Shown here one piece after another: positions 45,290-64,000 of a DNA stretch of 64,000 nt. This stretch comes from Phycisphaerae bacterium. GTDB lineage: Bacteria; Planctomycetota; Phycisphaerae; UBA1845; Fen-1342. The stretch covers positions 82,118 to 146,117 of the forward strand of contig CAXXWX010000028.1 in assembly GCA_963675745.2 (NCBI GenBank), written 5' to 3'. The notes below the pieces were generated by a model. The model was not told where the DNA came from. It worked only from the letters and a program-made list of their open reading frames with translations, and searched no databases. Every line of letters begins with the position of its first letter. The stretch's first letter is position 1. Position numbers and translations under genes: made by a program.

Positions 45290-45913
45290 TTAACGGCGGC
45301 GCAACGCCAATGCGCCGAGGCAAAGCAGCAGCAAGCTGGCGGGCTCGGGCGTCAAGGAGGCGTTGTCAATCCACGAGCCACCGCCACCGGCCCCACCATT
45401 ATCGACGTTGCCGAAGCGTACCACGACCGGCAGGCCGAGTTCGTCACCGGCGGTGCCCGTCGTGTAGCTGACGCCGGCCATCTCGGACCAGGCGCCGCCG
45501 GCACCCTTGCCGGAGGCGACGCACAGATTGACGGCGAGCTCGACAAAGTTGTCAGCGATGCTGTCGCCGCCGGACAGGTAACCGATCTGATAAGGAACGG
45601 TCACATCCTCGCCGCCGCCACCGACCAACCAGCTCGTAAATGCGTAGTCCATTTCGGGCTCGAAGACCAGCGTGGAGACCTGCCCCATTATCTCGGCCGT
45701 GTTATTGCTGTAGAAAATGAAATTGAGGCCGAGCGTGCCGTTGTTTGGTGCCGGGAAACCGGCGTGGTCCGCCCAGCCGCCGCCTGTCACGCGCCAGCCT
45801 TCGGCGGTCGAGAACATCGCGCCGGGCTGGTACTCCATGTCCGCGTTGTAGAGGTTCGCGCTCGCCGAAGCGACCAATACCAACGCTGCTGTGATTGCCA
45901 TGAGGTGCCGCAT
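45290..45913 (-). CDS. PEP-CTERM sorting-domain protein
   Basis: Signal peptide; C-terminal TPEPASLLLLCLGALALRRR; GGAGGAGG SD. Confidence 0.9.
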   Translation of the reverse strand: MRHLMAITAALVLVASASANLYNADMEYQPGAMFSTAEGWRVTGGGWADHAGFPAPNNGTLGLNFIFYSNNTAEIMGQVSTLVFEPEMDYAFTSWLVGGGGEDVTVPYQIGYLSGGDSIADNFVELAVNLCVASGKGAGGAWSEMAGVSYTTGTAGDELGLPVVVRFGNVDNGGAGGGGSWIDNASLTPEPASLLLLCLGALALRRR

Positions 45914-46101
45914 TTCTGATCCTCCTCCAGTGTTTCCACTACACGCGGATGTGAATGACCCGCCACAGATTCGCCAGGATAGCCGGGTCCATGGGGGAAT
46001 GCGCGCCGGCGCATCCAGCCCGCCGTCCAATCCTCTCTCGCCACGCACACAGCGCAGCGCCCTTAGTCCTACACTTTATACTCTACACACCGCCCCCCAG
46101 T

Positions 46102-46131
46102 TTGATCTTTCAACTATCAGGATGGTATAAT
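46102..46131 (+). promoter_or_regulatory. Sigma70-type promoter, probably giving a leaderless araC transcript
   Basis: TTGATC-18 nt-TATAAT with extended TG; ATG only 7 nt downstream and no SD. Confidence 0.6.
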
Positions 46132-46138
46132 TTCAAAC

Positions 46139-47035
46139 ATGGCAGAAGAAGCGCTTATTCCGCGTGTGGCACATGATCTGGCCCGTATCGAGGCCATGCG
46201 GCCCTTTCGGGCGATCCCGGAACTGGTGATCGTCGGAGCCGACACGTCCCATACCGCCAGAGACCTGGGACCGCACTCACACCCGGGATTATTCGCGGTC
46301 TGCTGTATCCGGACGGGCTCGGTCCAGTGGCGGGTCGGGCGTGAGCAGCATGAGCTACACGGGGGACAGGTGTTCTGCGCGTGGCCGGGCGAGGTCTTGG
46401 GCGGGGTTGACGACGTGTTGCACCCGTGCAGCTTGTACTGGCTGTTGCTGGAACTGCCGAAACCGTGTACGCGAGGCTTCCTCGGCCTCCCCACCACCGA
46501 AGCCCGCGCGCTGCACCGCAGGCTTTGGCGCCTGCCCCGACGCGTGTTCGCCGCCGCCGAGTCGATCCCCGCGTGTTTTGCCAGCCTGTTGTCGGCCAGC
46601 CAATCGTCGGACCGCCTGGCCGAGATCGGAGCCAGGTCGGCGTTGGTCGGATTGCTCGTCGATGTCTGTCATTACTCGGCTGAGCCCAGCGACCGCACAA
46701 CTTACGCGACGCCCGTGGCAAGCGCGCTGGACTTGATGGCCAGCCACATCGCCGAGCCATTGTCGATTCCGGCCCTGGCAAAACGCGTGGGCTTGAGCAC
46801 ATCGCACTTCCATCGCCTGTTCAAAACGCAGACCGGGCTCGCGCCGGGCGATTACTACCTCCGGCGGCGCGTCGCCGCAGCGCGCGAGATGATCAGCCTC
46901 ACGGGTCTGCCGCTGGTGGAGATTGCCCTGCGCTGCGGCTTTGGCAGCAGCCAATACTTCGCCACGTGCTTCAGGCGCGTCACCGGCCAACGGCCGTCCG
47001 AGTACCGCCGCCTGTTTCAAGCCGATCATGGCTGA
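46139..47035 (+). CDS. AraC family transcriptional regulator
   Basis: N-terminal cupin (PHSH); C-terminal LA..VGLS.SHF..LFK...G and EIALRCGFGSSQYF..FR..G..PSEYR. Confidence 0.93.
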   Translation: MAEEALIPRVAHDLARIEAMRPFRAIPELVIVGADTSHTARDLGPHSHPGLFAVCCIRTGSVQWRVGREQHELHGGQVFCAWPGEVLGGVDDVLHPCSLYWLLLELPKPCTRGFLGLPTTEARALHRRLWRLPRRVFAAAESIPACFASLLSASQSSDRLAEIGARSALVGLLVDVCHYSAEPSDRTTYATPVASALDLMASHIAEPLSIPALAKRVGLSTSHFHRLFKTQTGLAPGDYYLRRRVAAAREMISLTGLPLVEIALRCGFGSSQYFATCFRRVTGQRPSEYRRLFQADHG

Positions 47036-47060
47036 CCCGAACACGGCGACTGATCCCGAT

Positions 47061-47330
47061 TCACTCCTCGCTGATTTCGTCCACTATGCCGATGATGACC
47101 GAGCGAATCGGGGCCTTGTCGTCGTTTACCACCTGGCGGGCGGAATTGCCTTCGTCGATCACCAGCACCGTCTGGCCGACGCCCGCATCGACGGCGTCGA
47201 TGGCTACCAGATAGCTGCCGAGCTCGCGCCCGTCCGGGGCGATGCGGTCAAGCATCAGCATCCGTCGACTGGCATAGGCCGGGTGCTTGATTGTGGCGAC
47301 CACCTCACCTTTCACGCGTCCGAGGATCAT
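47061..47330 (-). CDS. BMC vertex pentamer (EutN/CcmL family)
   Basis: MILGRVKGEVVAT.K, VAID.VDAGVGQ.V....EG.SAR, P....I.GIVD. Confidence 0.9.
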   Translation of the reverse strand: MILGRVKGEVVATIKHPAYASRRMLMLDRIAPDGRELGSYLVAIDAVDAGVGQTVLVIDEGNSARQVVNDDKAPIRSVIIGIVDEISEE

Positions 47331-47611
47331 TGCGCTTGCCACCCTTCGCGACTAACCTCATCGACCAGGCCCACGATCGTGTGGTCGACGGGCACAAACC
47401 AGATCTTCAGGGCGAGCGCCGCCTCGCGGCCACCCTCGTACGTCACCAACTGACCCGGACCAGCCATCCGCGTAGCATCGGCGGCGACAACCGGGCTCCC
47501 CGTGTCGGAACCGGTCCGATCGAGTGGCTGCACCAGCAGCATCGGCACGCCTGCAAGTCCCGTATAGCAGACGCACGGCGTCACGGTTCCGATGACACGG
47601 CCTAGCTGCAT
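47327..47611 (-). CDS. BMC vertex pentamer (EutN/CcmL family)
   Basis: MQLGRVIGTV, VVAAD...AGPG..V....G.EAA, PVD.TIVGLVD. Confidence 0.88.
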   Translation of the reverse strand: MQLGRVIGTVTPCVCYTGLAGVPMLLVQPLDRTGSDTGSPVVAADATRMAGPGQLVTYEGGREAALALKIWFVPVDHTIVGLVDEVSREGWQAQ

Positions 47612-47654
47612 CGCGGCTTCCCCCATGCACCTGTCAGAATGCGCGGCGCGGGCG

Positions 47655-48227
47655 TCATGAATGGAACTCCGTGGCATGGTTGATCCGCTCACGCAAATCG
47701 TCGTGCTGAATCGGGATCACCGTATGGCAGATGCTGCCGCCGAGCGCTGTGGCCGCCGCCAGGGCCGCCTCGACCGCGGCGTTTACATCGTGGACAGCGC
47801 CGGCCAGGTGTGTGACGCCCTTTCCGCCCAGGCCGTCGCCAAGCCGAATCTCAACAATCGTGATCTCGGCAGTTTTCACAGCTTTGTCGGCACCGGCGAT
47901 CGTCAGCGGGATTGAAGCTGACTCCAATATTGCGAGCGCATCGCCGGTGTTGGGCCGGCGCTTGCGGCCAACCGCCTCGTAAACCTGCAAATGCACGTCC
48001 GGCAGGAAAATCTCGGTGCGAATGGCGTGCCCCCCCACGCGCAGCCCCTCGGACCGCGACTCCTCGACCGCGGCAACTGATCCGCCGATCAGCACCACGT
48101 ATTTGCCCGGGTGGACCGTGCCGACACGGAAGATGTCGATCGGCGCCCGCTTGACCATCGCGTCGGCCGCATGCGTGCCGAGCGCGATACTGTCAAACTC
48201 GAATACAGCAATCGCAGGTGGCGTCAT
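47655..48227 (-). CDS. Tandem BMC-domain shell trimer (PduT-like BMC-T)
   Basis: E..SIA.G..AADAMVK.A, TVHPGKY...IGGSVAAV; second domain AD.AVK.A...EIRLGDGLGGK. Confidence 0.85.
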   Translation of the reverse strand: MTPPAIAVFEFDSIALGTHAADAMVKRAPIDIFRVGTVHPGKYVVLIGGSVAAVEESRSEGLRVGGHAIRTEIFLPDVHLQVYEAVGRKRRPNTGDALAILESASIPLTIAGADKAVKTAEITIVEIRLGDGLGGKGVTHLAGAVHDVNAAVEAALAAATALGGSICHTVIPIQHDDLRERINHATEFHS

Positions 48228-49669
48228 CACACTATCCGGAAGTGGTCCACCAGAACACATCGCCGCTCGCGCGAAAAGGCGCGCGGGCCGGTCAATCCCT
48301 CGCCGGTCGGACTGGCGATCGAGAACGACGAATATCCTTCGCCGCCCTCACCCAGCCCCGCAACGGCCGGACCGTTCTTGACGAAGATGCTGCAGTTCAT
48401 GGCACGCGCCATGCGGCTGAGCTTGTTGATGTTGCGCGAGTACATGACGGCGGTGTGGCGGCGACCGCCCTCAGCCGCGACCGCCGCGTCGATCGCCTCG
48501 TCCACGTTGGCGACGCGCACGACCGGCAACACCGGCATGAGCTGCTCCGTCCAGACGAGGGGATTGTTCATATTCACTTCGACCACGGCAAGACGCACAT
48601 CGTCACCGACATTCATGCCGATGGCGCTCAAGATGACGCCGGCGTTCTTGCCAATGAAGTCCTTGTGCATGACGCCGGCGGCGCGCGGCCCGTGTCTCTC
48701 TTTGAAGATGACGTTTTCGAGCTGCTTCGCCTGACCGCTGTCGAGCACCACGGCCCCATGCTGCTGCATGGCGGCCAACAGCTTGTCGGCTACCGAGGCC
48801 ACGACGAACGCCTCTTTCTCATCAACACAGATGATGTTGTTGTCAAACGAAGCGCCACGGACAACGCCTTCAGCGGCTTCTTCGATATCCGCGGTCTCAT
48901 CGACGACAATCGGCGGGTTGCCGGGTCCGGCGCAGATTGCCCGCTTGCCGCTTTTCATCGCGGCGTTGACAACCCCCGGACCGCCGGTGACGACCACCAG
49001 CCGGACACCGGCGTGGGTCATGAGCGCCTGGGCCGACTCAACGGTCGGCTCTGTGATCGTGGACACGAGGTTGGCCGGGCCGCCGGCGCGCATGATCGCC
49101 TGGTTGATCAGGGCCACATTGTGAACCGAGACGCGCTTGGCCGCCGGATGGACGTTGAATACGACGGAGTTCCCGGCAGCAACCATGCCAATCGTGTTGC
49201 AGATGATCGTGGAAGTCGGGTTTGTGCACGGAGTGATGGCCGCGATCACGCCATACGGAGCGCGCTCCATGAGCATCAGGCCGCGGTCACCACTCTTGGC
49301 CACCGGTGGCAGATCCTCGGTGCCTGGCGTCTTGATCGCAACCAGCCGATTCTTGATGACCTTGTCTTCGCAGCGGCCCAGCCCGGTTTCCTCGTGGGCC
49401 TGGCGTGCAAGCGGCTCGGCGTTGGCCAACATCACCTCGCGGATGCTCGCGATGATCTTATCGCGCACCGCCAGGCTCATCGCATCCAGCGCTTGGTATG
49501 CCTTCTCGGCGGCACCCACAGCGGCATCAAGGTCGTCAAACACGCCCGGCTGTGCCGGGGCGGCGGCGGATCGGGTAACCGCGGCCGGCTGCGCTGCCGC
49601 CGCCGGCCGGAGCCCCTCGAGCACACGACGGGCAATCTGATCCACATGTTGATCGGTCATTCGGGACAC
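48227..49669 (-). CDS. CoA-acylating aldehyde dehydrogenase (EutE/PduP-like) with N-terminal encapsulation peptide
   Basis: EETGLGR..DK..KN, PYGVI.AITPCTNP, VTGGPGVV, AGPGNPP, FDNNIIC, TGEG; N-terminal DQHVDQIARRVLEGL helix followed by an Ala/Pro linker. Confidence 0.92.
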   Translation of the reverse strand: MSRMTDQHVDQIARRVLEGLRPAAAAQPAAVTRSAAAPAQPGVFDDLDAAVGAAEKAYQALDAMSLAVRDKIIASIREVMLANAEPLARQAHEETGLGRCEDKVIKNRLVAIKTPGTEDLPPVAKSGDRGLMLMERAPYGVIAAITPCTNPTSTIICNTIGMVAAGNSVVFNVHPAAKRVSVHNVALINQAIMRAGGPANLVSTITEPTVESAQALMTHAGVRLVVVTGGPGVVNAAMKSGKRAICAGPGNPPIVVDETADIEEAAEGVVRGASFDNNIICVDEKEAFVVASVADKLLAAMQQHGAVVLDSGQAKQLENVIFKERHGPRAAGVMHKDFIGKNAGVILSAIGMNVGDDVRLAVVEVNMNNPLVWTEQLMPVLPVVRVANVDEAIDAAVAAEGGRRHTAVMYSRNINKLSRMARAMNCSIFVKNGPAVAGLGEGGEGYSSFSIASPTGEGLTGPRAFSRERRCVLVDHFRIV

Positions 49670-49732
49670 GAGAGTGCTCCTGATCTTCGCCCGCCAGTTG
49701 ATACCGGCAAGCCGCCGCGCAGCGTCACCGCG

Positions 49733-50029
49733 CTACTCGTCGCCCTTGCGATATCGAATCTCACCGTCAACCTCCCAGTTGTCCACAATCGCCATGATCA
49801 CCGCGTCGCACGGGCGGTTCGTGGTGATCTGCGTCTGGCGTCCGGAGCTGCCGGTGGCATAGAGGATGTACTCACCCGGACCGGCGCCCACGGCATCAAC
49901 GGCGACCACATGGCCCCCCGTCGGCTTCGCGTCCGCATCAACCGGCTGGACGAGCATGAAACGCAGCCCTTCCATGCTGCCCTCTTTCCTTGACGACACG
50001 ACCGTGCCCACAACCTTGGCTAGTAGCAT
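49733..50029 (-). CDS. BMC vertex pentamer (EutN/CcmL family)
   Basis: [27 protein letters not shown]....[16 protein letters not shown]. Confidence 0.93.
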
Positions 50030-50183
50030 CTGCACGCTCCACTGCGCTGCCGCGCGGTAGTCATCACTCGACGGTAAACACTCGGTCGCCGTCGCACCGT
50101 GGGAAGAGCGCCCGCGCGCGAGACCTTCAGCGCCACACATCCGCGCTGCGATATCTCCGCCGGGCCCCGACTCGGCGGCGCGT

Positions 50184-50492
50184 CTACTTGCGTTTAGCCT
50201 CGTTCGCCGCCTGCTCGGTGCGGCCCAGCGGCAACACCAGGTCCACGTTGGTGTGCGGGCGGGCAATCACGTGGACGGTGATGATTTCGCCAACCCGCGA
50301 CGCTGCGATCTGGCCGGCATCGCAGGCCGCCTTCACCGCGGCGACATCTCCGCGAATCGTGGCCGTGACGTAGCCGCCGCCCACTTTTTCATACGAAACA
50401 AGCTCGACCTTGGCGGCTTTGACCATAGCGTCGGAGGCTTCGACCATCGCGGCAAACCCGCGCGTTTCAATCATTCCCAGAGCATCTGCCAT
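50184..50492 (-). CDS. BMC shell hexamer (EutM/PduA-like BMC-H)
   Basis: [41 protein letters not shown]. Confidence 0.96.
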
Positions 50493-50543
50493 TGCGAGAC
50501 TCTCTCCTGTGTTGTTCCGGACCCTGCGGCCGGACTGTACCTA

Positions 50544-51168
50544 CTATTTATCCGCAACCCGGCCGGAGACACTCTCGACGGCGGCGATCGCGGCCCGATA
50601 CCCGACTTCTATGTCACGTTCTTCACCACCGAGGTAAAGGCGTCCGAAACTGCCAAACGAACGCACCTCGAGCACGTTGATCTCGGCGGCCTTCTCAGCT
50701 TCGTTGGCGGCCAGCGCCGAGTAGGCCGCCGGCACGCACTCCATGATGTAAAGCGTCTGAGCCGGCAGAATCATGTTGCCGTGTCTCATACGGTTGATCA
50801 GTTGAGTCTGGTAGTCGTCCATGCGGCGAATCACCTGGCTCGAAATCACGCGCGGCTTCTGGCGTTGATCTTCGGTCAGGCCGATGGCATCCAGGATCGC
50901 CTGGCCGGCCTGGCGGATGTCGGCCTGCGAATCGGAGTGTATCTCCAGCATGCCGTAGAGACGCTCGACGATCTGCATTCCAGGAGTGACGCGCGTGGAT
51001 TTGAGGGCAATATCGGTGATGCGGTTGATCTCGATGCCGGGCGAGATCTCCACGAACAGTGCCGCCTGACCGGCGACGGGCAGAAAGCCCTGCGCGATGG
51101 TCGCCAGGAAAGAGGCGTATTGCGGCTGCAGGCTGTCGAGGAACACATACGCTCGTAGATCTACATTG

Positions 51169-51176
<8 letters not shown>
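50544..51176 (-). CDS. Permuted tandem BMC trimer (CcmP/CsoS1D-like, gated pore)
   Basis: [39 protein letters not shown]...[19 protein letters not shown]. Confidence 0.88.
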
Positions 51177-52647
<1,471 letters not shown>

Positions 52648-52661
52648 TGTTGACCGCCTGG

Positions 52662-53360
52662 TCAGTCAATGTCGCAGTCGAAGTTCGACGCGCGCCCGGC
52701 GTGGGTCGCGCGACCTGAAACCACCCGCTGGCCTGCCTCCACCGCAATACCGTCTGCCAGCTCAACGTAAGACTCGTCGACAAACTTCGCATAGACGCTG
52801 GTAATCCGCGGATGCGCGTGCCCGAGCTGACGCTGGACAAAGAGCAGATTACCCCCGGTTCTCAAATACGCCAAATGACCATATGTGTGCCGCAAGAGCT
52901 GTACGCTCGCCCGCGTCCCCAGCCCCGCTTCGGTCAGAATCCTCACAACGCGCCGATACAGGCCGGTCCGCTCATACGCCCGCCCGCGCTCATTGAGCAC
53001 CAGAGGCTGAGCCGCGTCCGTCCGACTGATCTCGGCCGGTAAACTCCCCGGCCGGACGTCCCTCACGTAATCCTGCACCAGCGCGCTCAGCGTTTGCGGA
53101 ACATACACGGTTCGCGCCCGGGCCGCACGCCCGCGCACCACAAAGACCGACTGCCCCGTGCCGACGATCGTGTCGCTGACTTTCAGCCCGCAGAACTCCG
53201 AGTTGCGCAGTCCTGAGAATAAGAGCGCCTTGACTATCACCTCATCAAGCCGAGCACTCGCCAACCGATCACCGCGCGCGCCGGCCATCCGCTGGCGCAG
53301 GTGCGCGACCAACTCGTCAACTTCCGTGACGGACAGAAATTTGTCAGGCGTAAGCTCCAA
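52662..53360 (-). CDS. Tyrosine recombinase, catalytic domain only
   Basis: SGLRNSE, QLLRHTY, VQRQLGH, TSVY; 232 aa with no N-terminal core-binding domain; TTG start. Confidence 0.82.
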
Positions 53361-53374
53361 CTCGCGCTCGCTGT

Positions 53375-53404
53375 CGAGAGCATTATATCTTGATTATGTT
53401 GCAG
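53375..53404. promoter_or_regulatory. -10 box (TATAAT, minus strand 53382-53387) embedded in a dif/cer-like sequence
   Basis: CGAGAGCATTA-TATCTTGA-TTATGTTGCAG. Confidence 0.4.
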
Positions 53405-53664
53405 TAATACCGAATTGTCGCACCGTGTAAAGGCCCCCGCGGCGATAATTCTGTGGATAATATCACGTTTGTGATATCTCTTGTTGCGTATGATGCTGGC
53501 GAGTTTTGGTGATACGTCGGCACACGTGCTCTAGACTCGCCCCCGCGCGTTCCCTCGGTGGTAGACACGCTAGACGCGACGCAGCAGGAAGCTCGTGCCG
53601 ATCGAAGCCGCAACCGTCACGCACAACTGTGACGCGTAGAATATGCCACGCGTAGCATTAGACT

Positions 53665-54600
53665 ATGGTCACACGTCAGCGCGAGGTGCAGTGCACGATG
53701 GCCGCTTACAGGATTCGCGAGTTCCGGGGTTTGGAGGACGCCCGTGCGCAATACCGGCTTTGGCTGCGCGCTACTGAGGCTCTTCCGCGCGCATGGCGTT
53801 CTTCCTTGCGCAACGCCGAACACCAGCTCGCGCAAGCCGAACGCTTCCCGAAAAGCCGGCTGTACGCCGAGCGACCTGACGGAACATTGCTCGGCTACAT
53901 CGGCACGCACCCGCCGTTCGAATGGGTTGCCTCCCAACATGGCCCGCCGGCGGATACGCTCGGCTGGGCGATTCCATTCGGGTTTCCCTGGACGTATCCG
54001 CTGAACGCCGCACTGCAAGCCGAGCTGTACGAGGCGATGATCCGCCTGACGCCGGAGGTCTACAGCGAGTTCGCGTGTGATATCTACATTCAGCGGTTTC
54101 GAGAATCATGGTCGCACCACCTGACGTTTCTTGAGCAACGGGGCTGGAAGCGTTACCAGCGGTTGCCACTCCTGGGCCGGGGACTTGGCAATCCCGACAA
54201 GCCGCCGCATGAGCTTGTTGGCGTGGTGCGTGATGATCTGGAACTGGCGAGCGCGCTCAGCCAAGCGGACAAGACCGCAACAGACAAGTTTCCAACTGAG
54301 GAGCTTCAGCAACGTTACGACGCCGGCTGGATTGCGTGCGACACATTCTGGCGGCTGGGCGAGCGCGGGGCGTTTGCGCTGGAGCACCGCGGGCGCTGGG
54401 CGGGTGTGACCTTCTTCTCAGCCCGGCCCGATGCGTGGGATGAGACACTCCGGGCGGCCGCAGCGCAGAGTGCGGCTTTGGGCGCGAGCGAGATGTACTT
54501 TACGATCGAGGCAAGCGAGCAGCGGCGGCGTGAGGCGCTTGAAATCGCCGGGTTTCGTGAGGTTGACGCCGGCGTCTACTACGTGCGCGAGGCCGATTGA
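53665..54600 (+). CDS. Hypothetical protein, possibly tandem GNAT-like fold
   Basis: 311-aa ORF with coding-like usage; FLEQRGW and LEIAGF segments resemble GNAT C-terminal motifs; alternative start 53698. Confidence 0.55.
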   Translation: MVTRQREVQCTMAAYRIREFRGLEDARAQYRLWLRATEALPRAWRSSLRNAEHQLAQAERFPKSRLYAERPDGTLLGYIGTHPPFEWVASQHGPPADTLGWAIPFGFPWTYPLNAALQAELYEAMIRLTPEVYSEFACDIYIQRFRESWSHHLTFLEQRGWKRYQRLPLLGRGLGNPDKPPHELVGVVRDDLELASALSQADKTATDKFPTEELQQRYDAGWIACDTFWRLGERGAFALEHRGRWAGVTFFSARPDAWDETLRAAAAQSAALGASEMYFTIEASEQRRREALEIAGFREVDAGVYYVREAD

Positions 54601-54666
54601 GTCCGGCCGACTTACCGGCGTGCAGTTTCAATTGTGATGGAATAGTGGCGTCGTTACGATGGACTG

Positions 54667-56298
54667 ATGCGATTCGCAGCGGGATTCTTCCTGATAACGC
54701 TCAATCTGTCCGTCGTCAGCAACGCCGGCGGACAGACGATCATCGTCGATAATGCCGATCCCGAATTCGCCGTGCTTTCAGGCACGTGGAGCAGCGGAGC
54801 ATATGGCTCGCCGTATGGCGAGGACTACAACTGGGCGCTCACCACCGGCGCGGGCGGCGCGCCGGCCGAAGTTGAATGGCGTCCCAACCTGCCCCACGCA
54901 GGCGAATACGAGGTCGCGGTTCACTACGTCAGTGGTCCGAATCGCGCCGTAGACGCCCCCTTCACGATTCATCATGCCGGTGGGACCACCACAACGATGG
55001 TGGATCAGCAACTCAACAGCGGTACCTGGGTTCCGCTGGGGAGCTTTGCCTTTGACACTGGCACAGGCGCATATGTCACGCTCGACAACGCCGCCGGTCC
55101 GACCGTTGTGATCGCGGACGCCGTGCGGTTTCGATCGGCCGACGCGTTGGTGTTGTACGATGACCCGCGGATCAGAATCGGCGGCGCCCTGTTCCCCCAC
55201 GCAACGGATTACGCCGTGCGGCTTGATCGCATTGATCCGTTGTTGCTGGCAGACCCGGACGACCTGTTCTCGCCGGCGGTGGCCGTGCTCACGACCGGCG
55301 TGACCGTCAACTTCCGCACGGACAGTGCCTCGATACGGGCTAACTTCAACCACCTGTCTCACGTGGTCACCGAAAACACGGGCTACGTCGTGTACCAGAA
55401 CGGCGTATTTGATCAACTCGTCAACGAGCTCGACGTTGTCGAGATCACATCCACACAACCCGGCACACCCGTAACCTATGAGATCGTCTGCCCGAGCTAC
55501 GACGAGGTCACGTTCGCGGATCTGGAACTGGCATCCGGCGCGTCGATGTTCCCGCTGCCTGTGGATCGACGACCGCGGTACTTCGCCCTCGGCGACTCGA
55601 TCACGCACGGCAGTGAGATCGACGCCGATACAAAGGCCGACAGTACGACGAGCTACCCATGGGTGCTGGCCGCGACCAGAGGCTGGCACCTGCACAACCT
55701 CGCCGTGGGTGGGTCCGAAGTAGCGCCGGCGTTTGGCAACATGCTGGTCGACGAGCGTGCTGACGCCATCACGATTCTCTGGGGCCTGAACGACAAGTCG
55801 CACGACAATGATCTGCCCCTGTTCATAGGCAAGTATGAGGATTTGCTGGACAACTTGCGTGCTGCCCAGCCGTGGACGCCGATCTACTGCGTAACGATGA
55901 TCGCCTGCTCGGGCGAAGGCCCCGGCAGCAACGGCTACACACTGGACGACTATCGCGACGCCATCGCCGGTATCGTCGCCGCGCGCCAGGCGACCGGCGA
56001 TTGCCACTTGCACCTGGTCCGCGGTGAAGAGCTGACCACGCTGGCCGACCTGAGCGACGGTGCGCATCTCAGCGTTCCGGGCGCGGCCCGCTTCGCTGAT
56101 GAGCTGAACGGCGTAATTGGCGCCGCCTGGGGTGATCTCGACTACGACGGCACATGGGGCGCCGGCGACTTCGCACTGCTCGCGGGTTGCCTGACCGGTC
56201 CGGACGCGCAGCCGGCGGCGGGGACGTGCGATGACGCCGACTACGACTGCGACTGCGACGTTGATCTGCACGAGATAGCGGCTCTGCAAGTGAGATGA
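54667..56298 (+). CDS. Secreted SGNH/GDSL hydrolase with N-terminal golvesin/xanthan-lyase-like beta-sandwich and C-terminal dockerin-like domain
   Basis: IIVDN.D..F...G.W, G.Y.V, VDQ....G.W..LG.F, VIADAVRF; GDSITHG, NLAVGG, GLND, DGAH; GDLDYDG...CLTGPD...C..ADYDCDCDVDL. Confidence 0.82.
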   Translation: MRFAAGFFLITLNLSVVSNAGGQTIIVDNADPEFAVLSGTWSSGAYGSPYGEDYNWALTTGAGGAPAEVEWRPNLPHAGEYEVAVHYVSGPNRAVDAPFTIHHAGGTTTTMVDQQLNSGTWVPLGSFAFDTGTGAYVTLDNAAGPTVVIADAVRFRSADALVLYDDPRIRIGGALFPHATDYAVRLDRIDPLLLADPDDLFSPAVAVLTTGVTVNFRTDSASIRANFNHLSHVVTENTGYVVYQNGVFDQLVNELDVVEITSTQPGTPVTYEIVCPSYDEVTFADLELASGASMFPLPVDRRPRYFALGDSITHGSEIDADTKADSTTSYPWVLAATRGWHLHNLAVGGSEVAPAFGNMLVDERADAITILWGLNDKSHDNDLPLFIGKYEDLLDNLRAAQPWTPIYCVTMIACSGEGPGSNGYTLDDYRDAIAGIVAARQATGDCHLHLVRGEELTTLADLSDGAHLSVPGAARFADELNGVIGAAWGDLDYDGTWGAGDFALLAGCLTGPDAQPAAGTCDDADYDCDCDVDLHEIAALQVR

Positions 56299-56372
56299 AG
56301 TTCGGCGAAGAGGCCGCTGGCGTGCGACCATGCATGCGTGAACGGCCATTCAGCGCTGGCGTCAGGTACATC

Positions 56373-56401
56373 TTGACAGGCGGCGGGAGGGTGTATACGC
56401 T
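56373..56401 (+). promoter_or_regulatory. Sigma70-type promoter of the tRNA
   Basis: TTGACA-17 nt-TACGCT, 12 nt upstream of the tRNA. Confidence 0.65.
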
Positions 56402-56413
56402 GCGTTACTCGAT

Positions 56414-56486
<73 letters not shown>

Positions 56487-56502
56487 GTTCGGTAAGCTCC
56501 TT

Positions 56503-56532
56503 AGGGACAAGACTTAGGCTTGTCCCTTTTTT
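56503..56532 (+). terminator. Intrinsic terminator after the tRNA
   Basis: AGGGACAAG-7 nt-CTTGTCCCT followed by a T run. Confidence 0.8.
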
Positions 56533-56660
56533 GTGCGCCGGCCGCGAAAACGGGCGTTTTTGCTACCAATTTGTAACCACGCCCTGAAATCGAACCGGCC
56601 GGCTCGCCGCTCTCGGGATGGAACAAGCCACCAGGTACCGAGAGCGACGAGGAGCTACCC

Positions 56661-57909
56661 GTGGCCGCCATCTACAAACGCGGAAAGAAGGGCATCTGGT
56701 GGATCAAGTACTATGTCGCCGGAAAAGCGGTCTACTACTCGCTGCGCACGACCAACGCCCGCGCCGCCGAGCGCATCAAGAAACAGATCGAAGGCGACGA
56801 AGCCAAGGGCGAACTGCTCGCCCCCTCCCGCACGCCGCTGCCTGAACTGCTCGAGGACTACTGCCAGTTCATGGCGACGTTCCGCACGCCGAAGTCGTGC
56901 TCTGCGGACGTCTCGATCCTGCGGATCGTCTTCGGTCCCATCACGCCGGCGCTGGAGCTCGGCTCGCACGTGAACCGGCGGTTCCGCACCGACAGCGCCC
57001 GCCGGGTGCGCGACACGTTGGTCCCCCGCCACATCCTCGCCAAGCACCTCGAAGATGTCACCGGCCGCGTGCTGGAGGACTTCATCACGACACGGATCCG
57101 CGAGGACGGGATCTCGGCCAAGACCGCCAACCGCACCCGCGAGGTGCTGCACAAGCTGTTCAACTACGCGATCAAGAAATGGGGCTTCGTGGCCCCCGAC
57201 CGACGGCATCCCAATCCCGCCGCGCTCGTGCAGCGACGCTCTGAGCCGCCGCGCGTGATCCGATTCCTGACCGCCGAGCAGGTCACCCGGCAGCTGGAGA
57301 TCCTCGCTGATCAGCCCACGCTGCACGCCATGGTGGCCACGCTGATCTATGCCGGGCCGCGCCGCGAAGCGGTGCTCTGGCTCACGCCCGAAGATGTCGA
57401 CCTGGAGCGACGCCTGCTCCACATTCGGGCGAAGAAGATCGCCGGTGAATCCTGGCAGCCCAAGACCAAGCGGAATCGCGTGGTGCCGATCAGCAGTGCC
57501 CTGCATGCGATCCTTAAGCGCGTACAAACCGCCGACCGAAGGGCCGTGGTTCTTCCCCTCGCCGCGGGGCTGCCGTTGGAACCCGGACAACTTCTCGCAG
57601 ACGCTGCGGGAGATCAACAACGCGCATGGCCTGGCGTGGTCGTGCTTGGATTTCCGGCACACGTTCGGCAGCTTGCTCGCTCAGAAAGGCGTGTCGCTCT
57701 ACAAGATCGCCGAGTTGATGGGCAACTCGCCGGAGATCTGCCGCCGGCACTACGCGGCCTGGTGCCGGAGAAGATGCACGACGTGGTCGAGTTCGACGAG
57801 GAACCTGAGAAGCCGACACCGACCGATGACCTGCTGCGGCAGGTGCTGGCCAAGCTCGACCAGCTGCCGCTGGACGAGGACAAGCCGAAGTCTGCGCGTG
57901 GTCTCCTGA
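56661..57909 (+). CDS. Tyrosine integrase with apparent indels near 57516, 57759 and 57891
   Basis: N-terminal IYKRG..WWI.Y arm; YAGPRREA, KTKRNR.VP; after the frameshift LDFRHTFGS.L...GVSL..IA.LMGNS..ICRRHY. Confidence 0.82.
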
Positions 57910-58008
57910 GTTGCGAAGGGCTCGTCTCATTCATGCGGAACGGAAACCACCGCGGACGTGGCGTTTCGTGATGTCGTAGTGGGCGCGGCAGCGCGAAAGG
58001 GTGGGTCT

Positions 58009-58235
58009 TTAGTCGACGTATTCGCGCGAGGCGAGCCAGGCCTCCACATCGGACCAGCGGTAACGGATGGCGCCGTTTTCTGGTCACTGACGGCGATGGG
58101 CTGGATGCCCGCCTCGCGCAGCCACCGGCGCACCGACGAGCGGTGGGCATCCAGCCGTAGGGCCAGTGTCTTCAAACTGACCGCCAGCGGGTGGCGCTCG
58201 TCCGGTTTGTGCGGCTGGATGCCCTGGCGTGGCAT
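58009..58235 (-). CDS. Excisionase-like HTH protein (one indel near 58080)
   Basis: SLKTLA..LDAHRSSVRRWL in one frame joins NGAIRYRWSDVEAWLASREYVD* in another; GGAGG SD. Confidence 0.65.
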
Positions 58236-58255
58236 GGTGAATATCCTCCCGTAAT

Positions 58256-58564
58256 TCAGTCGGTGACCGCGCCTTCGTGTTCGACGGCGGCGGCCCCGGG
58301 TTCCGCGTCCGGGTCGCGCTCATTCAGCACGATGAACTCATAGGCCTTCTCGACCACGAGCCTCAGCTTCGGTAGATCGCTCGCGAAGAAGCAATCGGTT
58401 TGGATCCAGTTCTGGGTCCGGGGATCGCGATAGCTCTTCTCGATTCGAATGCTGTGGCTGACGCGTGGAGCCTCACCACCGCGCTGCTCATTCCTCCAGA
58501 TTGCGGCGCGGACGCCGCCGGCGCGAAACTCCCGGACCGGGCGGTTGGGGGTGGCATCAGACAT
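58256..58564 (-). CDS. Small protein, putative PC4-like ssDNA-binding protein
   Basis: P..EFRAG.VRAAIW.N...S..IEKSY.D....W.....F...DL pattern with acidic tail; AAAGGAGA SD; fold assignment from memory. Confidence 0.5.
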   Translation of the reverse strand: MSDATPNRPVREFRAGGVRAAIWRNEQRGGEAPRVSHSIRIEKSYRDPRTQNWIQTDCFFASDLPKLRLVVEKAYEFIVLNERDPDAEPGAAAVEHEGAVTD

Positions 58565-59625
58565 CGTATTTCTCCTTTTGGAAGCGGATGTACCGTCGGC
58601 CGCGCTCAGCGCGGCCGTCCCGGAAACGCGGTGAACGCTGCAGCGCGGGTCGCAGAAGGGTCGAATCGCGGGGTCCTCGCAGCCGCAGCCCCGATACGGT
58701 TTGGCGTACGCGCTCGCCGTTTGCTCGACGATTTCGTCGGCCGTGATGATGGCCTTCCCGTCGCAGGGACGATTCCTGCCGGACCAGTCGCATAGGGCGG
58801 CCGCTGCAAGGTCTTGGGGAAGACCGGCCTTCTTCAGATGCACGGCCAGGCGGAAAGCAACTAACACGCTGAAGCTCGGTCACGCCCTCCGCGAGCATGC
58901 GCTGAGCACACGGCGGCAACCCATACGATGCCTGCCCGTTGGTCGGCCGGTGCGCCGGATCGTGGTCCTTGCGGATGTGCGGGGACGGCGTGAGGTCGTT
59001 GAGTTCGATGAGCTCGTCGAGCTGGTGCTCCGTGATTCGGACGACGGTTTCGAGCACCTGCCACTGCTCAGGGTGCGGCTTGAACCCGTTGTCTGGATCG
59101 AGGAAAACGGTCCGACCATGCGGGACCAGTGCGCCGAACAGTGGCGCGTAGATGTAGTTGCCGTATATGGCCCTGGTATCGAGCCGGTCGTGCTTGGGGA
59201 AGACCTCGGTGTTGGGCTGGCCGATCTGGTCCAGAATGCAGCGAACGACCAGCCGCGCCTTGGCAAGCCGGGACGCGGGCCTCATCGAAGAACATCCAGA
59301 CGTGGTGGCCCTTCGATTTGCTGCGCTCGATGTACGTGACCAGACCGTAGCCCAGGGCGCCTTCGCGGAAGCGCATCGGCGGGTCGAGGTCGTCCACGTC
59401 GAAATCCACGGCCACGGCGCGGGTCAGATCGTTGACCAGCAGGTACACACCGTATGGACGCCGGCCCTGCAGATGAGCGACGATGACCGCATTCGTCACC
59501 GGCTGCTTGACCTGCCGCGCGCGACCGGTGGCCGGGTCGTATGTACCGTATACGTGCGGCAGTCCGCTGAAGCACGCACGGAACACGGCCACCTTCTGCT
59601 CGGTCGTCCTCGTGGTCCGCGACAT
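58557..59625 (-). CDS. Archaeo-eukaryotic primase (AEP) with Cys-rich PriL-like C-terminus (indels near 59265 and 58855)
   Basis: HL.G....GVY.L, AVDFD, YIERSKSKGHHVW.FF, EVFPK....GN.I..PL; then LPPC...YRGCGC...FCDPRC. Confidence 0.75.
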
Positions 59626-59703
59626 AGGCACGCGCGCTGCTCCCTTCGGAGGCGGAACGCAAAGGCCTCCGTAGGATCATGCGGAGCGGTCGCGCCGTGG
59701 GTT

Positions 59704-60345
59704 TCAGGAGGGGGGGGCTTCCCGGCGAAAGAAGCCGGCGAAGACCCGCTTCAAGAGGCTGTCGGTCCAAAGGTGCGTGTCAATCAGACCGAACACGTCT
59801 TCGGCCCACTGTTCCGGCGAACACTGGCGCAACTCGGCAGGCAGATACTCACGGTGTTGCTCGAGCAGAATGGCTGCCATGGCGCATTTCGTGGGCCAGT
59901 CGGCTGAATCGACGTACGAGCACTCGATCCAGCGAATGTGCATCTGGCGGCGCTCGTTCTTAATCAGCTCCGCAAGCCGGGTCAGGACTAGCTCCATCCC
60001 CGGGCTGGATGTGTTAGCGGCGTCGAGAATCGCCCCCTGGTAACCGCCGGCGTGCGTACCCTGGTAGGCCCTTGACAGGAGAGCCACGGCTTCGTCCCGG
60101 GCCTGAGATGCCGTGGGCTTCCTGCTACCAGGCAGTGCCTTCTCGTAGACGTGGGCAACGAACCGGGCAGCAGTATCTATGAATCGCAGCTGCGAGTAGC
60201 CGTCGTCTTCCGGGCAGTTGAATTCATCGAGGGCCTCGTCGATCGGCGCGTCGATGCGCTGGGCAATGAGGTGTTCGTCGAGCAGACCAGCTACGCGGTC
60301 AAGCGTTTCAGCGGCCCGGCGTAGGATTGACTCAGAGTTCGTCAT
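59704..60345 (-). CDS. Unknown ~210-aa helical protein (paralogue A)
   Basis: Intact ORF overlapping the ATPase stop; shares motifs with 62936-63527 and 63540-64000. Confidence 0.7.
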   Translation of the reverse strand: MTNSESILRRAAETLDRVAGLLDEHLIAQRIDAPIDEALDEFNCPEDDGYSQLRFIDTAARFVAHVYEKALPGSRKPTASQARDEAVALLSRAYQGTHAGGYQGAILDAANTSSPGMELVLTRLAELIKNERRQMHIRWIECSYVDSADWPTKCAMAAILLEQHREYLPAELRQCSPEQWAEDVFGLIDTHLWTDSLLKRVFAGFFRREAPPS

Positions 60346-62866
60346 GGCCGAACGACTCGTCGTTGAGTTGACCCGCCGACACGTGTGAACTGAAACCTGC
60401 GTCGGTACCTGCCAAGAGCCGCTGCTGAACCAGCGGTTGTGACAGCGGCGTCTGCCATCGCCGGCTACGCGTATCGACGACGTGCTGGACATCCGCGGCC
60501 GGCCGGCAGTACTTCGCATGGGACCGGGCGATGATCAGATCCCGGCAGTTCTCTTCTTGGATATCCAACGGGGGGTGGGTTGCCAGTCGGACCACATGCG
60601 TGCCGATTCGGGCGATCGCCTGCCCGATATCCAATGTGATCAGATCCTCCACCTCGACCAGGCCGCGGAGGTCTTTCCTGAGGTGCTGGGCGTCCTTTGT
60701 GTCGACGTTGAAGACGATCGTCGAGCCCACGCTCGACAGCGCATCGCTCTTGCGCGTCGTGAACTGGCTCATGTACTGATGCGCGACGGTGAGTGACACA
60801 TCGAACTTGCGGGTCTCGGCGATTAGATCCTCCATGGCATCGGTCATGAAGCGGTGGCGCCTCATCGCAGTAGATGTGGAAGGGCCGACGTTGGCCCGTT
60901 GGCACGCTCCCGCGGCCCAAGGGCCGTCAGGTGCAATAGCGAGAGCATGAAGCAGCCCAGGATCTCGCGCACCTCCGGGCCGACTTTCGAGAGGTCCACC
61001 AGCAGGATCTTCCCGGCTTCCATCACGTCCTGGAAATCGAATCGCCGACTCATCCTGCGACAGCATGAGCGACACCGTCCCCGAGGTCAGCAGCTTGCTG
61101 AGCTTGTGCTGCGCGGGTGCCAAATCGGACGGTTTGTAATCCTTGAAGTCATGCTGCCAAAACAGCTTCGCCACAGCATTATCGACGGCCTTCAGCACCT
61201 CACCGCGCAGGTGTCGGCTTTCGTCGGACTTCGATCGCAGTAAATTCGACACGTCGAAAAGACAGCTGCCCGGCATGTGCAGGAGGGCGAAGATCGCGTG
61301 ACGCAGCAGGTGGCTCCAGGCGGTCGCCCCAGCCGGTGACAAAGCTCTTGAAGGCACGCACCAGGTCATCGGCAACCCGGCTGATTTCCAGGTCCGCGCC
61401 ACAGCGAAGCGGGTTCCAGCGCGGAACCCACTGGGGGTCGCCAGGGTCGAGGTAGATGACACGGTCGATGTGTTTCAGCGGGCAGCAGGCCCAGGATCCG
61501 CTGGACGAGCCGCCCGTGGGGATCCAGCACCGCCACCCCCTGGTCCTGGCGCACGTCGTGAATGATCATCGATTCCATGACCGTAGATTTGCCCGTCCCG
61601 GACCGTCCAATGAGGTGCACGTGTTTCCCACGCACATCCGGCGGGATGCACACGGGCTGCCGTACGCCGGCGCAGTCGCAGTGGCCGATGGGAACGCCGA
61701 CCATGAGCTGCTGCCGGTGGCGGGAGGGTCTCCAGCGCATTCGTATCCGTTTGGACGTGTGCGGATATGTCCGGCGGCGGGACGTGAGCCCAGGCTGGTC
61801 AGCTCCCAGGAGTTCATGAGGAACCCGGGCCGATGCGTGGCTCCGCTGACGAACATCCGCCGGATGTCCGAAGCAGACAGCTTCGACCGGTAGTCGAATT
61901 CGCCTCAGCCAGTCCAACGGCCGGCCACCGTGTTGAAAGAGGCTCGCGACGACCGCCAGCGCCCTCAGCTCGTCCACGGCGGTGTTCGCCGCCATCAACG
62001 ATGCCGACACGCAGCGCGGCGGCGAAAAACGGCTTGTCACTGTGTGATTTGACCTCGACCTCTGCCGACATCTGCCGCAGATCACCCGAGGGCGCCTGTT
62101 GGGCGAATTGCTGTGGGTGGGGCGAGCTCCGCCGAGCAGTTTGATCGTGTATTCCAGATCCAGGAGGGCCTGGACGTTTTGGTGCCAGTTATGCGCCGGT
62201 GGGACGGGTTCAAAGACGACCTGGTAAACGCCGATCGCTGGGGCTGGGATCTGGACCAACACCGCGATCAGCGTGGCGTAGGGAGACCGTCTGAGCTCAT
62301 CGGGCCGTGTGAACAGGTGCGAATAGGGCGGAGGCGGGTAAAAATCACGGAAGACCGCCTTGTCCCAGACCTCCAGCGGGAGGCCTCGTAGGAGGTCGAT
62401 CCCGTTGTCGGCGAGCAGGCACTGCTCGAACTGCCCGTTGAACGCGGCCGATATGATTCGGCCGATCGTCCCGGTGGCAGAGCAGCTGGAACCAGATCCG
62501 TTCCGTATTGCCGAGGAGTTCCAACCCGATTCGTCGACGAACGTGGGAGAGCTGCTTGAGCAGGAGTTCGGACCGGACCCAGTCACACTTCTGCTCCGGC
62601 GAGGTCCAGATCTGCAGGCGGACGAGATCGTCCTCGGGGGGCGGTTCCTCATATACCCAGTTGACAGGCGAGGTCGCGCGGCGTCTCGTGGTCGCTTCCG
62701 AGAATGAGATCATACGCAGGTTCCAGCGCCACCGGCTCGGGCCAGGATGTCCGGCAGACACCCTTTGCCGACCTCTTGCTGCACCAGCGCCTTGGCCTTG
62801 GCCGTCAACATGTACGACCGGGCCTTGCCCAGCAGCGCCTCTTTCGATCGACATCGCCGTATTCAT
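60332..62866 (-). CDS. VirD4/TraD/HerA-like P-loop ATPase with large N-terminal domain (multiple indels)
   Basis: HVHLIGRSGTGKST, GVAVLDPHG, GKILLVDLS, FHIYCDEA, E.RKF.VSLTVAHQY..Q spread across frames; start approximate. Confidence 0.75.
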
Positions 62867-62935
62867 CCACGCCTCTGTACGAAGAAGCGTGCGGATGAAT
62901 CGGCGTCTGGATTTCAGCCGACCATTGGCGGAGCG

Positions 62936-63527
62936 TCAGCTGCGACCAATCTGGCCGAGGCGCTGCATCATCCTGGGATGCTCGGCCAGCACCTTGAGGA
63001 AGTTCATCTTCACGCGCCCGGCGCTCCGTGCTCGGTCAGCTCGGACGGTAGGAGACGCCCATACTCGGCCAGGTACTCGTCCGTGGCGCGGAGCTTCTCG
63101 TCCGCGGAGAGTCCCTCCCAATAGCGCGAGATCCGCCCCTTGATTTCATTCTCGGCGTATTCGCGAGCCTGCACCTCGGCGAACTTCCGGAGCACGGCGT
63201 TGAGGCCCCCTTCAACGCCCGTGCGGGCCATCTCGAACGCGGTCTGGTATCTCGCCATTGGATTCGAAGGCTCTTTGCAGCAACACTTTGCTGTAATGGC
63301 CCCACGCGAAGTTCTGGTCTATGTCAGGCATCGTGTGTAGACGCAAGATCCGCGTATCCACGTGCCGGCCGAAACGGATGATACACTGCCGAAACTCATC
63401 CCAGTCGGCGATGCGCGCCGCTTTGACAGGGAACGTGTTGATGGCCTCGTCAGCCCTTCGAGCCGTCTGGTCCAGCGTCCTGTCTCGGGTGAACGCTGTT
63501 CAGCAGTTCCTTGAGTGCGCTTGCCAT
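62936..63527 (-). CDS. Unknown ~195-aa helical protein (paralogue B; indels near 63485, 63250 and 63025)
   Basis: Reconstructed MASALKELL..DEAINTF..DEFRQCIIRFGRHV..LLQRAF..AFEMARTGVEGGLNAVL..LPSEL..GRS*. Confidence 0.62.
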
Positions 63528-63539
63528 GGCATCGTCCCC

Positions 63540-64000
63540 CTATAGCCTTCGGAACATGGACGAGGTCCCTTGCAGGCTCCGGACATAGGATCGGATCAGC
63601 TCCCCGTAGTTTTGCGCGTACCGCTCAGGCTGGCTGGCGTCGATGGATGAAGCCAGATTAGCCCCGCACTGGGCAATGAACTGGCGGATGATCTCGACCT
63701 TGTCCTCCCAGGAGTTCGGCGCGACGTGTTTGTCAAACATCTCGCGGATGTACCGCTCGACCGACTCAGTCTTGAGCCCTTCGGCGAGTGTGTCCAGGAT
63801 GACGCGCAGACCGCCGTTGGTGCCGTCCCGCGCATCGTTGAACGCCGCGACAATGTCTCCATTGCGGCGGCGATATGCCTGTTCCAGAATCTCCTTGGCA
63901 CGACCAGCCGCCTCGGAGCGCGGCAACGCCCCGCCGCCGGAAACGCATCGCGTGAACTGGTGATTGTAGTAGTCAGCGATAATGTCGGTAAACCGATCGA
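63540..64000 (-). CDS. Unknown helical protein (paralogue C; 5' end outside the window)
   Basis: Frame is open to the window end: RFTDIIADYYNH..ILEQAY..AFNDARDGTNGGLRVIL..SWEDK..PERYA. Confidence 0.7.
   Translation of the reverse strand, partial: DRFTDIIADYYNHQFTRCVSGGGALPRSEAAGRAKEILEQAYRRRNGDIVAAFNDARDGTNGGLRVILDTLAEGLKTESVERYIREMFDKHVAPNSWEDKVEIIRQFIAQCGANLASSIDASQPERYAQNYGELIRSYVRSLQGTSSMFRRL

Follow-up and report, generated by a model that had tools for sequence, protein, structure and literature searches.

A tyrosine-recombinase-fold protein, predicted to be catalytically disarmed, heads a sugar-phosphate microcompartment operon in Phycisphaerae and may be a domesticated regulator

Introduction

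The nearest described parallels to the protein considered here are two repressors with the fold of a tyrosine recombinase (YR), namely MrpR (YopR) of SPbeta, which binds promoter elements (PMC10516654), and SroF of phi3T (bioRxiv 2025.11.27.690993). According to the accessible parts of these reports, both combine the YR fold with lost catalytic residues, as does the YR encoded in the window (the whole stretch of 64,000 nucleotides that was analysed). However, MrpR and SroF retain a core-binding (CB) and a catalytic (CAT) domain, bind as monomers and control prophage lysogeny at many sites, whereas the family of the window YR is CAT-only, has a palindromic candidate site and shows one site per genome, on the chromosome and beside metabolic genes. 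The losses also differ, as MrpR, in the same accessible text, lost arginines and histidines and kept the lysine and tyrosine, while the YR family lost the lysine and a histidine and kept the R-R-H-Y set. By analogy, the window YR would work most like MrpR and SroF, but it is not a member of their group. The authors of PMC10516654 guess, in the part of the text available, that YR-fold proteins have been recruited as repressors more widely than in SPbeta-like phages.

Two further groups share features with the window YR. FimB/FimE-type invertases are likewise about 200-230 aa long, consist of the catalytic domain only and lie near a promoter; unlike them, the YR lacks the catalytic lysine, no paired inverted repeats or inversion were found, and it scores 25.1 bits against a cut-off of 221 with the profile NF007370. 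XerC, XerD, XerA and XerH provide the closest solved structures and profiles, all far below cut-off, and differ from the YR in having a core-binding domain, the lysine and the box-II histidine. The available text of the YR classification (PMC8138268) describes no such group and does not contain 'Planctomyc'.

The operon headed by the YR belongs to the sugar-phosphate utilisation (SPU) microcompartments as defined in the accessible parts of PMC8217296 and PMC11585597, where an RpiB-DeoC fusion is reported in 20 SPU3 loci. The head-of-operon gene has a YR fold here, while the SPU6 operon has a GntR gene in that position (PMC11585597, text seen in part); neither 'integrase' nor 'recombinase' occurs in the main text of the latter paper. 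Where the accessible text of the microcompartment (BMC) catalogue refers to integrases, it does so solely to indicate transfer (Sutter 2021), and its text supplements contain neither PF00589 nor 'integrase', although locus diagrams in picture form may show such genes. No paper joining a tyrosine recombinase to a microcompartment operon, or a tyrosine recombinase, an acyl carrier protein and Planctomycetes, was found in a literature search outside which most subscription journals lay.

Here, the YR is proposed to be a domesticated regulator of a promoter shared by the YR and BMC genes, a reading with a probability of roughly 0.5. A sequence-only reading of the locus had suggested that the organelle is controlled either by a DNA switch or by a domesticated recombinase acting as a transcription factor. 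The second branch gains real support from the loss of the lysine and histidine, a near-invariant recognition helix, a single promoter palindrome, conserved adjacency and the loss of most native promoters, while the first is unsupported. If the proposal holds, the YR family would extend recombinase-fold repressors to chromosomal metabolic genes and would represent a new build, with a catalytic domain only, different lost residues and a defined palindromic candidate operator. An SPU subtype would also gain a candidate regulator, and the family would offer a case of re-wiring, in which a regulator passed from the gene of an acyl carrier protein to the operon of an organelle and left traces in the sequence, as a decayed operator and a replaced promoter. 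In addition, it would serve as a warning that an integrase beside a BMC locus need not signal transfer.

The Microcompartment Locus and the Recombinase-Fold Protein

The features of the locus are listed in Table 1. The operon is an SPU locus, as it encodes DeoC, RpiB, AldDh, BMC-H, BMC-T and three BMC-P proteins, and it matches SPU3-like loci, as far as these are described in the accessible text, in the RpiB-DeoC fusion, AldDh and the set of shell proteins. The fusion, rather than the shell-protein models of the authors who defined the subtypes, is the basis on which the operon points to SPU3.

Table 1. Features of the YR-BMC locus in the window
Feature	Position	Strand	Evidence or remark
CAT-only YR-fold gene	52662..53360	(-)	ORF, TTG start, 232 aa
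YR residues kept	R52, E55, R157, H181, Y190		sequence/alignment
YR residues lost	hairpin Lys -> Arg78; box-II His -> Gln154		alignment
YR recognition helix	R131-T-G-L-Y135-R136-R137		matches Xer DNA-recognition helix
C-terminal hexapeptide FDCDID of YR	52665..52682	(-)	ends BMC-clade proteins after variable linker
Sigma70-like YR promoter	53404..53431	(-)	-35 TTTACA 53431-53426, 16-nt spacer, -10-like TATTAC 53409-53404
Putative remnant operator right arm (begins GCAACAT)	53388..53402	(-)	8.5 bits, right-arm matrix; left arm decayed
RpiB-DeoC fusion (SPU signature enzymes)	51169..52620	(-)	PF02502 + PF01791; TIGR00126 above cut-off
BMC-T-type shell protein	50544..51215	(-)	PF00936, weak match; 75-91% identical in related loci
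BMC-H shell protein	50184..50492	(-)	PF00936
BMC-P vertex protein 1	49733..50029	(-)	PF03319
Aldehyde dehydrogenase (AldDh)	48227..49669	(-)	PF00171
BMC-T shell protein, two BMC domains	47655..48260	(-)	PF00936 x2
BMC-P vertex protein 2	47327..47614	(-)	PF03319
BMC-P vertex protein 3, last gene of operon	47061..47342	(-)	PF03319
AraC-family regulator	46139-47035	(+)	convergent with BMC operon end, divergent from PEP-CTERM gene
PEP-CTERM gene	45290-46048		divergent from AraC gene

The YR had been described from the sequence as a catalytic-domain-only recombinase of 232 aa, and the open reading frame, a Pfam match to PF00589 alone (above cut-off) and the predicted structure bear this out. No Pfam match to a core-binding (SAM-like) domain was obtained for the protein, and its predicted model has the YR catalytic fold (pLDDT 88, with a low-confidence tail). 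XerA and XerH are the top Foldseek matches of the model, SroF appears weakly at rank 38 (E 4e-3), and a search of the ESM Atlas returned generic phage-integrase clusters only. The genome of the window contains two other YR matches, both full-length.

The same reading placed the end of the YR gene 14 nt before rpiB-deoC. The adjacency on the same strand stands, but the distance probably does not: the first in-frame ATG lies at 52647, the probable start is the second methionine at 52620 (MPEPGQ), and since homologues begin at this second methionine, the gap is probably 41 nt. In agreement with that reading, a scan detected no promoter- or terminator-like site in the gap, and the absence of a DeoR-type regulator 5' of the operon was likewise borne out, yet the AraC-family gene abuts the 3' end of the operon. 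The latter had no tblastn match in 168 related loci and is not a conserved neighbour.

On the other side of the YR, a divergent open reading frame (53665-54600, (+); 300-311 aa) has no Pfam or NCBIfam match and is not adjacent to the YR in other loci. The divergent intergenic region harbors a perfect 7-bp inverted repeat (ATATCAC-4 nt-GTGATAT, 53461-53478), possibly a site for another regulator, which was not noticed in related upstream regions.

Family, Partner Genes and Phylogenetic Distribution

A protein search with the window YR yielded 798 matches at E <= 1e-10, the top 120 being 54-66% identical to it. Of 92 genome loci and 240 metagenome loci, the best 80 each were compared, together with 8 from relatives, and 146 distinct loci were left once the distant YR L008 and duplicates had been removed; as these sets were ranked by likeness to the window YR, its own clade is over-represented. 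The relatives are labelled Planctomycetota, the closest being Phycisphaerae, which points to the latter class for the window.

The default partner of the family, which the sequence-only reading had missed, is an acyl carrier protein (ACP, PF00550) gene, found directly 3' of the YR in 103 of the 146 loci. The stop codon of the YR often lies within the ACP gene or directly against it, and the two genes overlap in 36 of 76 cleanly called pairs. The YR stands at the head of rpiB-deoC in 13 loci, 10 of which show shell genes while the other 3 lie on contigs that end earlier; it has another neighbour in 18, and in 12 the contig is too short to tell. An ACP remnant was read by eye in at least 5 of the 18 loci with other neighbours (L026, L054, L078, L117 and L166). 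Excision of the ACP gene by the YR was considered and rejected, as the 375-nt loss in L026 spares the ACP 3' end and resembles an ordinary deletion.

The YR-ACP pair occurs in unrelated housekeeping contexts overall, with synteny common to close kin. It forms a conserved two-gene unit of a disarmed YR and a planctomycete-type long ACP with a palindromic candidate operator, away from fatty-acid operons; L014:3541-4732 and L020:164-1279 are examples, and about 100 further loci have it. A holo-ACP synthase gene is convergent on the pair in six loci that form a cluster (L033 and L143 among them), and a few loci (L045, L063, L066) have a second ACP-like open reading frame 3' of the unit. The complex predicted for the cognate YR-ACP pair of L020 scored 0.16 against a mark of 0.32, a value that says nothing either way. 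A divergent lone family member beside ruvB (L185:4449-5510, in G061) has a hairpin lysine, a box-II glutamine and a similar acidic C-terminus. Among 8000 candidates of 504-2000 aa no fused longer form of the YR was found, which is weak evidence; 407-503 aa lies outside this range.

The BMC-type YR proteins (15 rows plus the truncated L092) form one clade nested among the ACP-type proteins, with an SH-aLRT support of 97 in a quick tree with a midpoint root; one genome, G252, has a copy of each type. All 16 BMC-type loci end in the motif F[DN]C[EAD][ITV]D, the third positions of which vary synonymously. The motif closes 24 of the 120 proteins in the alignment of close homologues (A1), and similar acidic ends also occur in a few non-BMC relatives. 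In most members of the clade the start has shifted to a TTG or ATG at an ancestral tryptophan codon. Substitution rates show purifying selection on the clade: dN/dS is 0.13-0.24 in the 14 pairs compared, the distant ones of which are saturated in dS. Conservation of the YR-BMC adjacency in other genomes had been proposed as a check, and its recurrence at 13 distinct loci with a YR of one clade indicates more than chance.

This distribution also bears on whether the YR is a decaying mobile-element remnant, or the integrase of an element that brought in the BMC operon, which we consider very improbable. Such an origin would fit the patchy spread of the family, which was found in 15 of 72 genomes of the taxonomic family and in 4 of 401 of a phylum sample, and the fact that distant loci are alike only in the promoter-YR-ACP unit; the accessible text of Sutter 2021 takes integrases by two RMM2 loci as a transfer sign. 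However, the reading frames are intact and under purifying selection, close relatives share flanking synteny on both sides, the GC content is flat over the operon, the rpiB-deoC tree puts the YR-headed operons together, no relative of the YR was found in the viral contigs searched, and no att-like repeats were seen flanking the YR and the operon. A real island lies nearby and has its own integrase: the region 56413-64000 begins at a tRNA-Met and contains an integrase that looks frameshifted (56661-57971), a fragment of an AEP-TOTE primase and an ATPase resembling TrwB/HerA. This region, which is covered by divergent contigs, is a separate integrated element that is probably decaying.

Active Site Residues Lost and Kept

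The sequence-only reading had noted that R, R, H and Y are kept, that HxxR reads QLLR and that the hairpin (VRGRAAR) has no evident lysine, and the alignment agrees, placing an arginine at the XerD lysine position. In A1, R52 is present in 119 of 120 proteins and R157, H181 and Y190 in every one, while the box-II position is glutamine in 117 and histidine in none. A lysine occupies the XerD hairpin position in 5 of 120 proteins and any hairpin position in 19. The tip of the hairpin is hypervariable and offers no conserved residue in place of the lysine. In an outgroup of 101 proteins ranked below the YR family, taken as the rows of 185-310 aa among the 150 profile-search matches listed, the hairpin lysine is present in 95 and the box-II histidine in 90. 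Since both residues are common in the outgroup, their loss is derived in the YR family. A large group of CAT-only YRs of 200-230 aa with intact lysine and histidine (P0144-P0271) likely represents the active ancestors of the family.

The two losses differ in weight. According to the accessible text on Cre (PMC2943603), most substitutions of His289, glutamine included, still recombine, with accumulation of the covalent intermediate in the glutamine variant, whereas none of the Lys201 substitutions gave measurable recombination in vitro and K201R was weakly active in vivo. The QLLR motif is thus present as described but would not be disabling alone, and the loss of the lysine is the informative one. 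On these grounds the window YR is predicted to be catalytically disarmed and probably does not cleave DNA, although Arg78, by analogy with the weak activity of K201R in vivo, leaves room for trace activity and speaks to that extent against a pure regulator.

The residues that are kept raise the alternative of a phosphoryl-transfer enzyme with changed chemistry, which would use R-R-H-Y to nick, relax or form a tyrosine adduct with its own operator, or whose substrate would be a phosphoester other than DNA, for example the phosphopantetheine link in the ACP partner. The invariance of R157, H181 and Y190 is more than a pure repressor would obviously need, and MrpR, in the text available, lost its arginines instead. 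Such an enzyme would also agree with the tolerance of Cre for the histidine-to-glutamine change and the build-up of its covalent intermediate, with the overlap of the YR and ACP genes and with the convergent holo-ACP synthase genes. However, the general-acid lysine is gone and has no conserved substitute in the hairpin, and Arg52 is replaced in L011 (by lysine, in a BMC-type copy) and in L085. Moreover, 27 alignment columns, many of them non-catalytic, are as invariant as the active-site residues, so that the invariance of the tyrosine is no specific evidence for catalysis. An enzyme of this kind appears quite unlikely. In the recognition helix, R131, Y135, R136 and R137 do not vary among the 151 locus proteins, including the 15 of the BMC type, which would suit a DNA-binding role.

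A Palindromic Candidate Operator on the Promoter of the Recombinase Gene

In ACP-type loci, the sigma70-like promoter of the YR is spanned by a 15-bp inverted repeat, the order of elements being TTGACA, GATCAGTAATGTTGC, a spacer with the -10, GCAACATTACTGATC, a ribosome-binding site and ATG, so that the -35-like hexamer lies directly 5' of the left arm. With a matrix trained on the same ACP-type upstream regions that it scores, the palindrome overlaps the promoter at 18 bits or more in 88 of 92 distinct regions (median 40). The spacer varies from 8 to 16 nt (12 nt in 47 of 90). Each arm has two conserved patches separated by mismatched middle columns, as expected for protein contacts. A hairpin or cruciform was considered as an alternative, because double changes number 81 against 39.7 +/- 5.3 in shuffles; as kinship inflates this count and the middle columns pair in only 43-58%, it is not favoured.

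Searched with a degenerate pattern of the operator, four of five whole genomes have exactly one site, which is the one at the YR promoter, and the fifth has none; a reversed control pattern found no site in the same five. Across 1.79 Mb of flanks, a search for a second copy recovered only the promoter of L034 itself and one match of 19.2 bits in L047.

In the BMC clade, the promoter is kept and the ancestral operator has decayed. The YR promoter satisfies a promoter rule (a -35 of TTGACA or TTTACA, with a -10 consensus partly derived from the loci tested) in 10 of 12 BMC-type loci, against a background of 0.2-0.3%, and in 11 of 14 upstream regions viewed (13 BMC-type plus L092) the distance from the -35 to the start of the match is 69-72 nt. 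By contrast with the ACP-type median of 40 bits, the full operator scores -8.7 bits in the window and between -14.5 and 17.5 bits in the 12 BMC-type upstream regions, all below 18. At the inner half-sites, 6 of the 12 score above the 95th percentile of random DNA (10.2), the window lying below it at 9.6, and GTTG/CAAC half-sites flank the -10 in several BMC-type lineages (L012, L089, L090 and L120). No replacement palindrome common to these upstream regions emerged, and in the 5.2-Mb genome of the window the best full site of the ancestral type reached 19.2 bits, with nothing near the 40-bit promoter sites. Owing to this decay, which includes the window, control of the BMC genes by the YR is an inference, and the case at the level of the family (a disarmed YR, its own operator and an ACP partner) is stronger than that for the BMC copy.

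Promoter Replacement and a Model for Regulation

Under the promoter rule described above, a promoter precedes rpiB-deoC in 8 of 9 shell-linked loci without a YR, and 7 of these promoters sit between -97 and -106 relative to the rpiB motif, whereas only 1 of 13 YR-headed loci has one (G001, at -102). This contrast indicates that the YR promoter probably also drives the BMC operon, with which the YR would be co-transcribed. In relatives the majority of SPU operons lack a YR, a point that the earlier reading had also overlooked. An RpiB-DeoC match was obtained in 16 of 251 genomes of a class sample, with shell genes in view in 8, of which 2 are YR-headed; among the 72 genomes of the taxonomic family there are 10 matches, and the 8 with shell genes in view comprise 3 that are YR-headed, 1 cut by the contig end and 4 without a YR. 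In the rpiB-deoC tree the YR-headed operons group at a support of 87 with three YR-less rows inside, in loose agreement with a single arrival. The simplest history suggested by these comparisons is a single arrival of the YR gene and its promoter 5' of an SPU operon, followed by decay of the native promoter in most descendant lineages.

Two loci are of note in this respect. L193, from the window's own genus (G001), keeps a native-type SPU promoter in the YR-rpiB spacer, the -10 of which is flanked by a perfect 9-bp inverted repeat distinct from the YR operator palindrome. L194 (G665) is a YR-less SPU operon that groups with YR-headed ones. Its TTTACA promoter lies 3' of a tRNA-like gene, its rpiB-deoC is interrupted by a stop, and it possibly reflects secondary loss of the YR.

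In the proposed mechanism, the disarmed catalytic domain would act as a sequence-specific DNA-binding regulator that most likely represses its own sigma70 promoter, with two YR subunits occupying the 15-bp inverted repeat over the -10 and start site. Co-expression with the ACP gene would be the ancestral and commonest state, from which an ACP-less copy would have come to lie 5' of the SPU operon, once, in a Phycisphaerae lineage. With the operon's own promoter decayed in most descendants, transcription of the YR, of rpiB-deoC and of the genes for the shell would start at the YR promoter; the YR protein, if it still binds this promoter in the BMC clade, would set the output for itself and the organelle genes. 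The decay of the ancestral operator in 12 of 12 BMC-type regions with no common new palindrome, the native-type promoter in the window's own genus and the many YR-less SPU operons (2 of 8 YR-headed in the class sample) weigh against this regulatory reading.

The same evidence leads to the main alternative for the BMC clade, that the YR is a promoter donor only: its promoter would drive the BMC genes, while the protein would no longer regulate it and would be kept for another job, for example binding elsewhere or a protein contact through the C-terminal FDCEID motif. Loss of the operator with retention of promoter and protein, the lack of an ancestral-type site above 19.2 bits in the genome and the existence of SPU operons without a YR are what such a donor would leave behind. 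On the other side, none of the 15 BMC-type proteins departs from the invariant recognition helix, half-sites flank the -10 in the four lineages named above and the YR has been kept in place over deep branches, which makes the donor reading somewhat unlikely.

A bolder extension of the regulatory reading, unlikely and speculative, is that the family represents a class of ligand-sensing transcription factors derived from a bare recombinase catalytic domain, in which the R-R-H-Y pocket would read a phosphate-bearing signal and free the operator. For the ancestral pair, the signal might be holo-ACP, or the acidic ACP might act as a DNA mimic, by analogy with Sar on SroF; the median net charge is +6 for the YR and -11 for the ACP. 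In the BMC clade, a nucleic-acid breakdown product such as deoxyribose 5-phosphate might take this role, in which case a former DNA-cutting enzyme would switch on an organelle that recycles DNA sugars.

The DNA-Switch Alternative

The remaining branch of the sequence-only reading, a DNA switch in which a FimB/FimE-type invertase phase-varies the BMC promoter, is suggested by the similar size, the CAT-only build, the adjoining promoter region and the weak NF007370 match. The score of that match is far below its cut-off, the catalytic lysine is absent and no convincing inverted repeat flanks the gene or the promoter. A repeat search over 46000-57000 returned weak GC-rich coding matches only, and the strongest local repeat (13 nt around the -35) is specific to the window. 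The candidate operator also differs from the sites on which such enzymes act. Recombinase crossover sites have a fixed spacer of 6-8 bp, whereas the operator spacer runs from 8 to 16 nt with a mode of 12, and a single variable-spacer site on the gene's own promoter looks more like an autoregulatory operator than a crossover site. The loci examined have their -35 on the side that faces the gene, and no second family site was found in the 1.79 Mb of flanks. A DNA contig of run X1 spans 51592-56437 without differences, though contigs drop rare variants, and no strand-change joint was found among the 15 joints listed of 18, in assembled contigs of one study. With no second site, flipped promoter or inversion found, the switch is unsupported and highly improbable. 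One joint connecting 46202 to 54754 occurs in runs X1 and X2 (depth 12 and 20). It jumps over the YR and all of the operon, 32 other letters standing between the two sides, and is probably a chance match from another organism.
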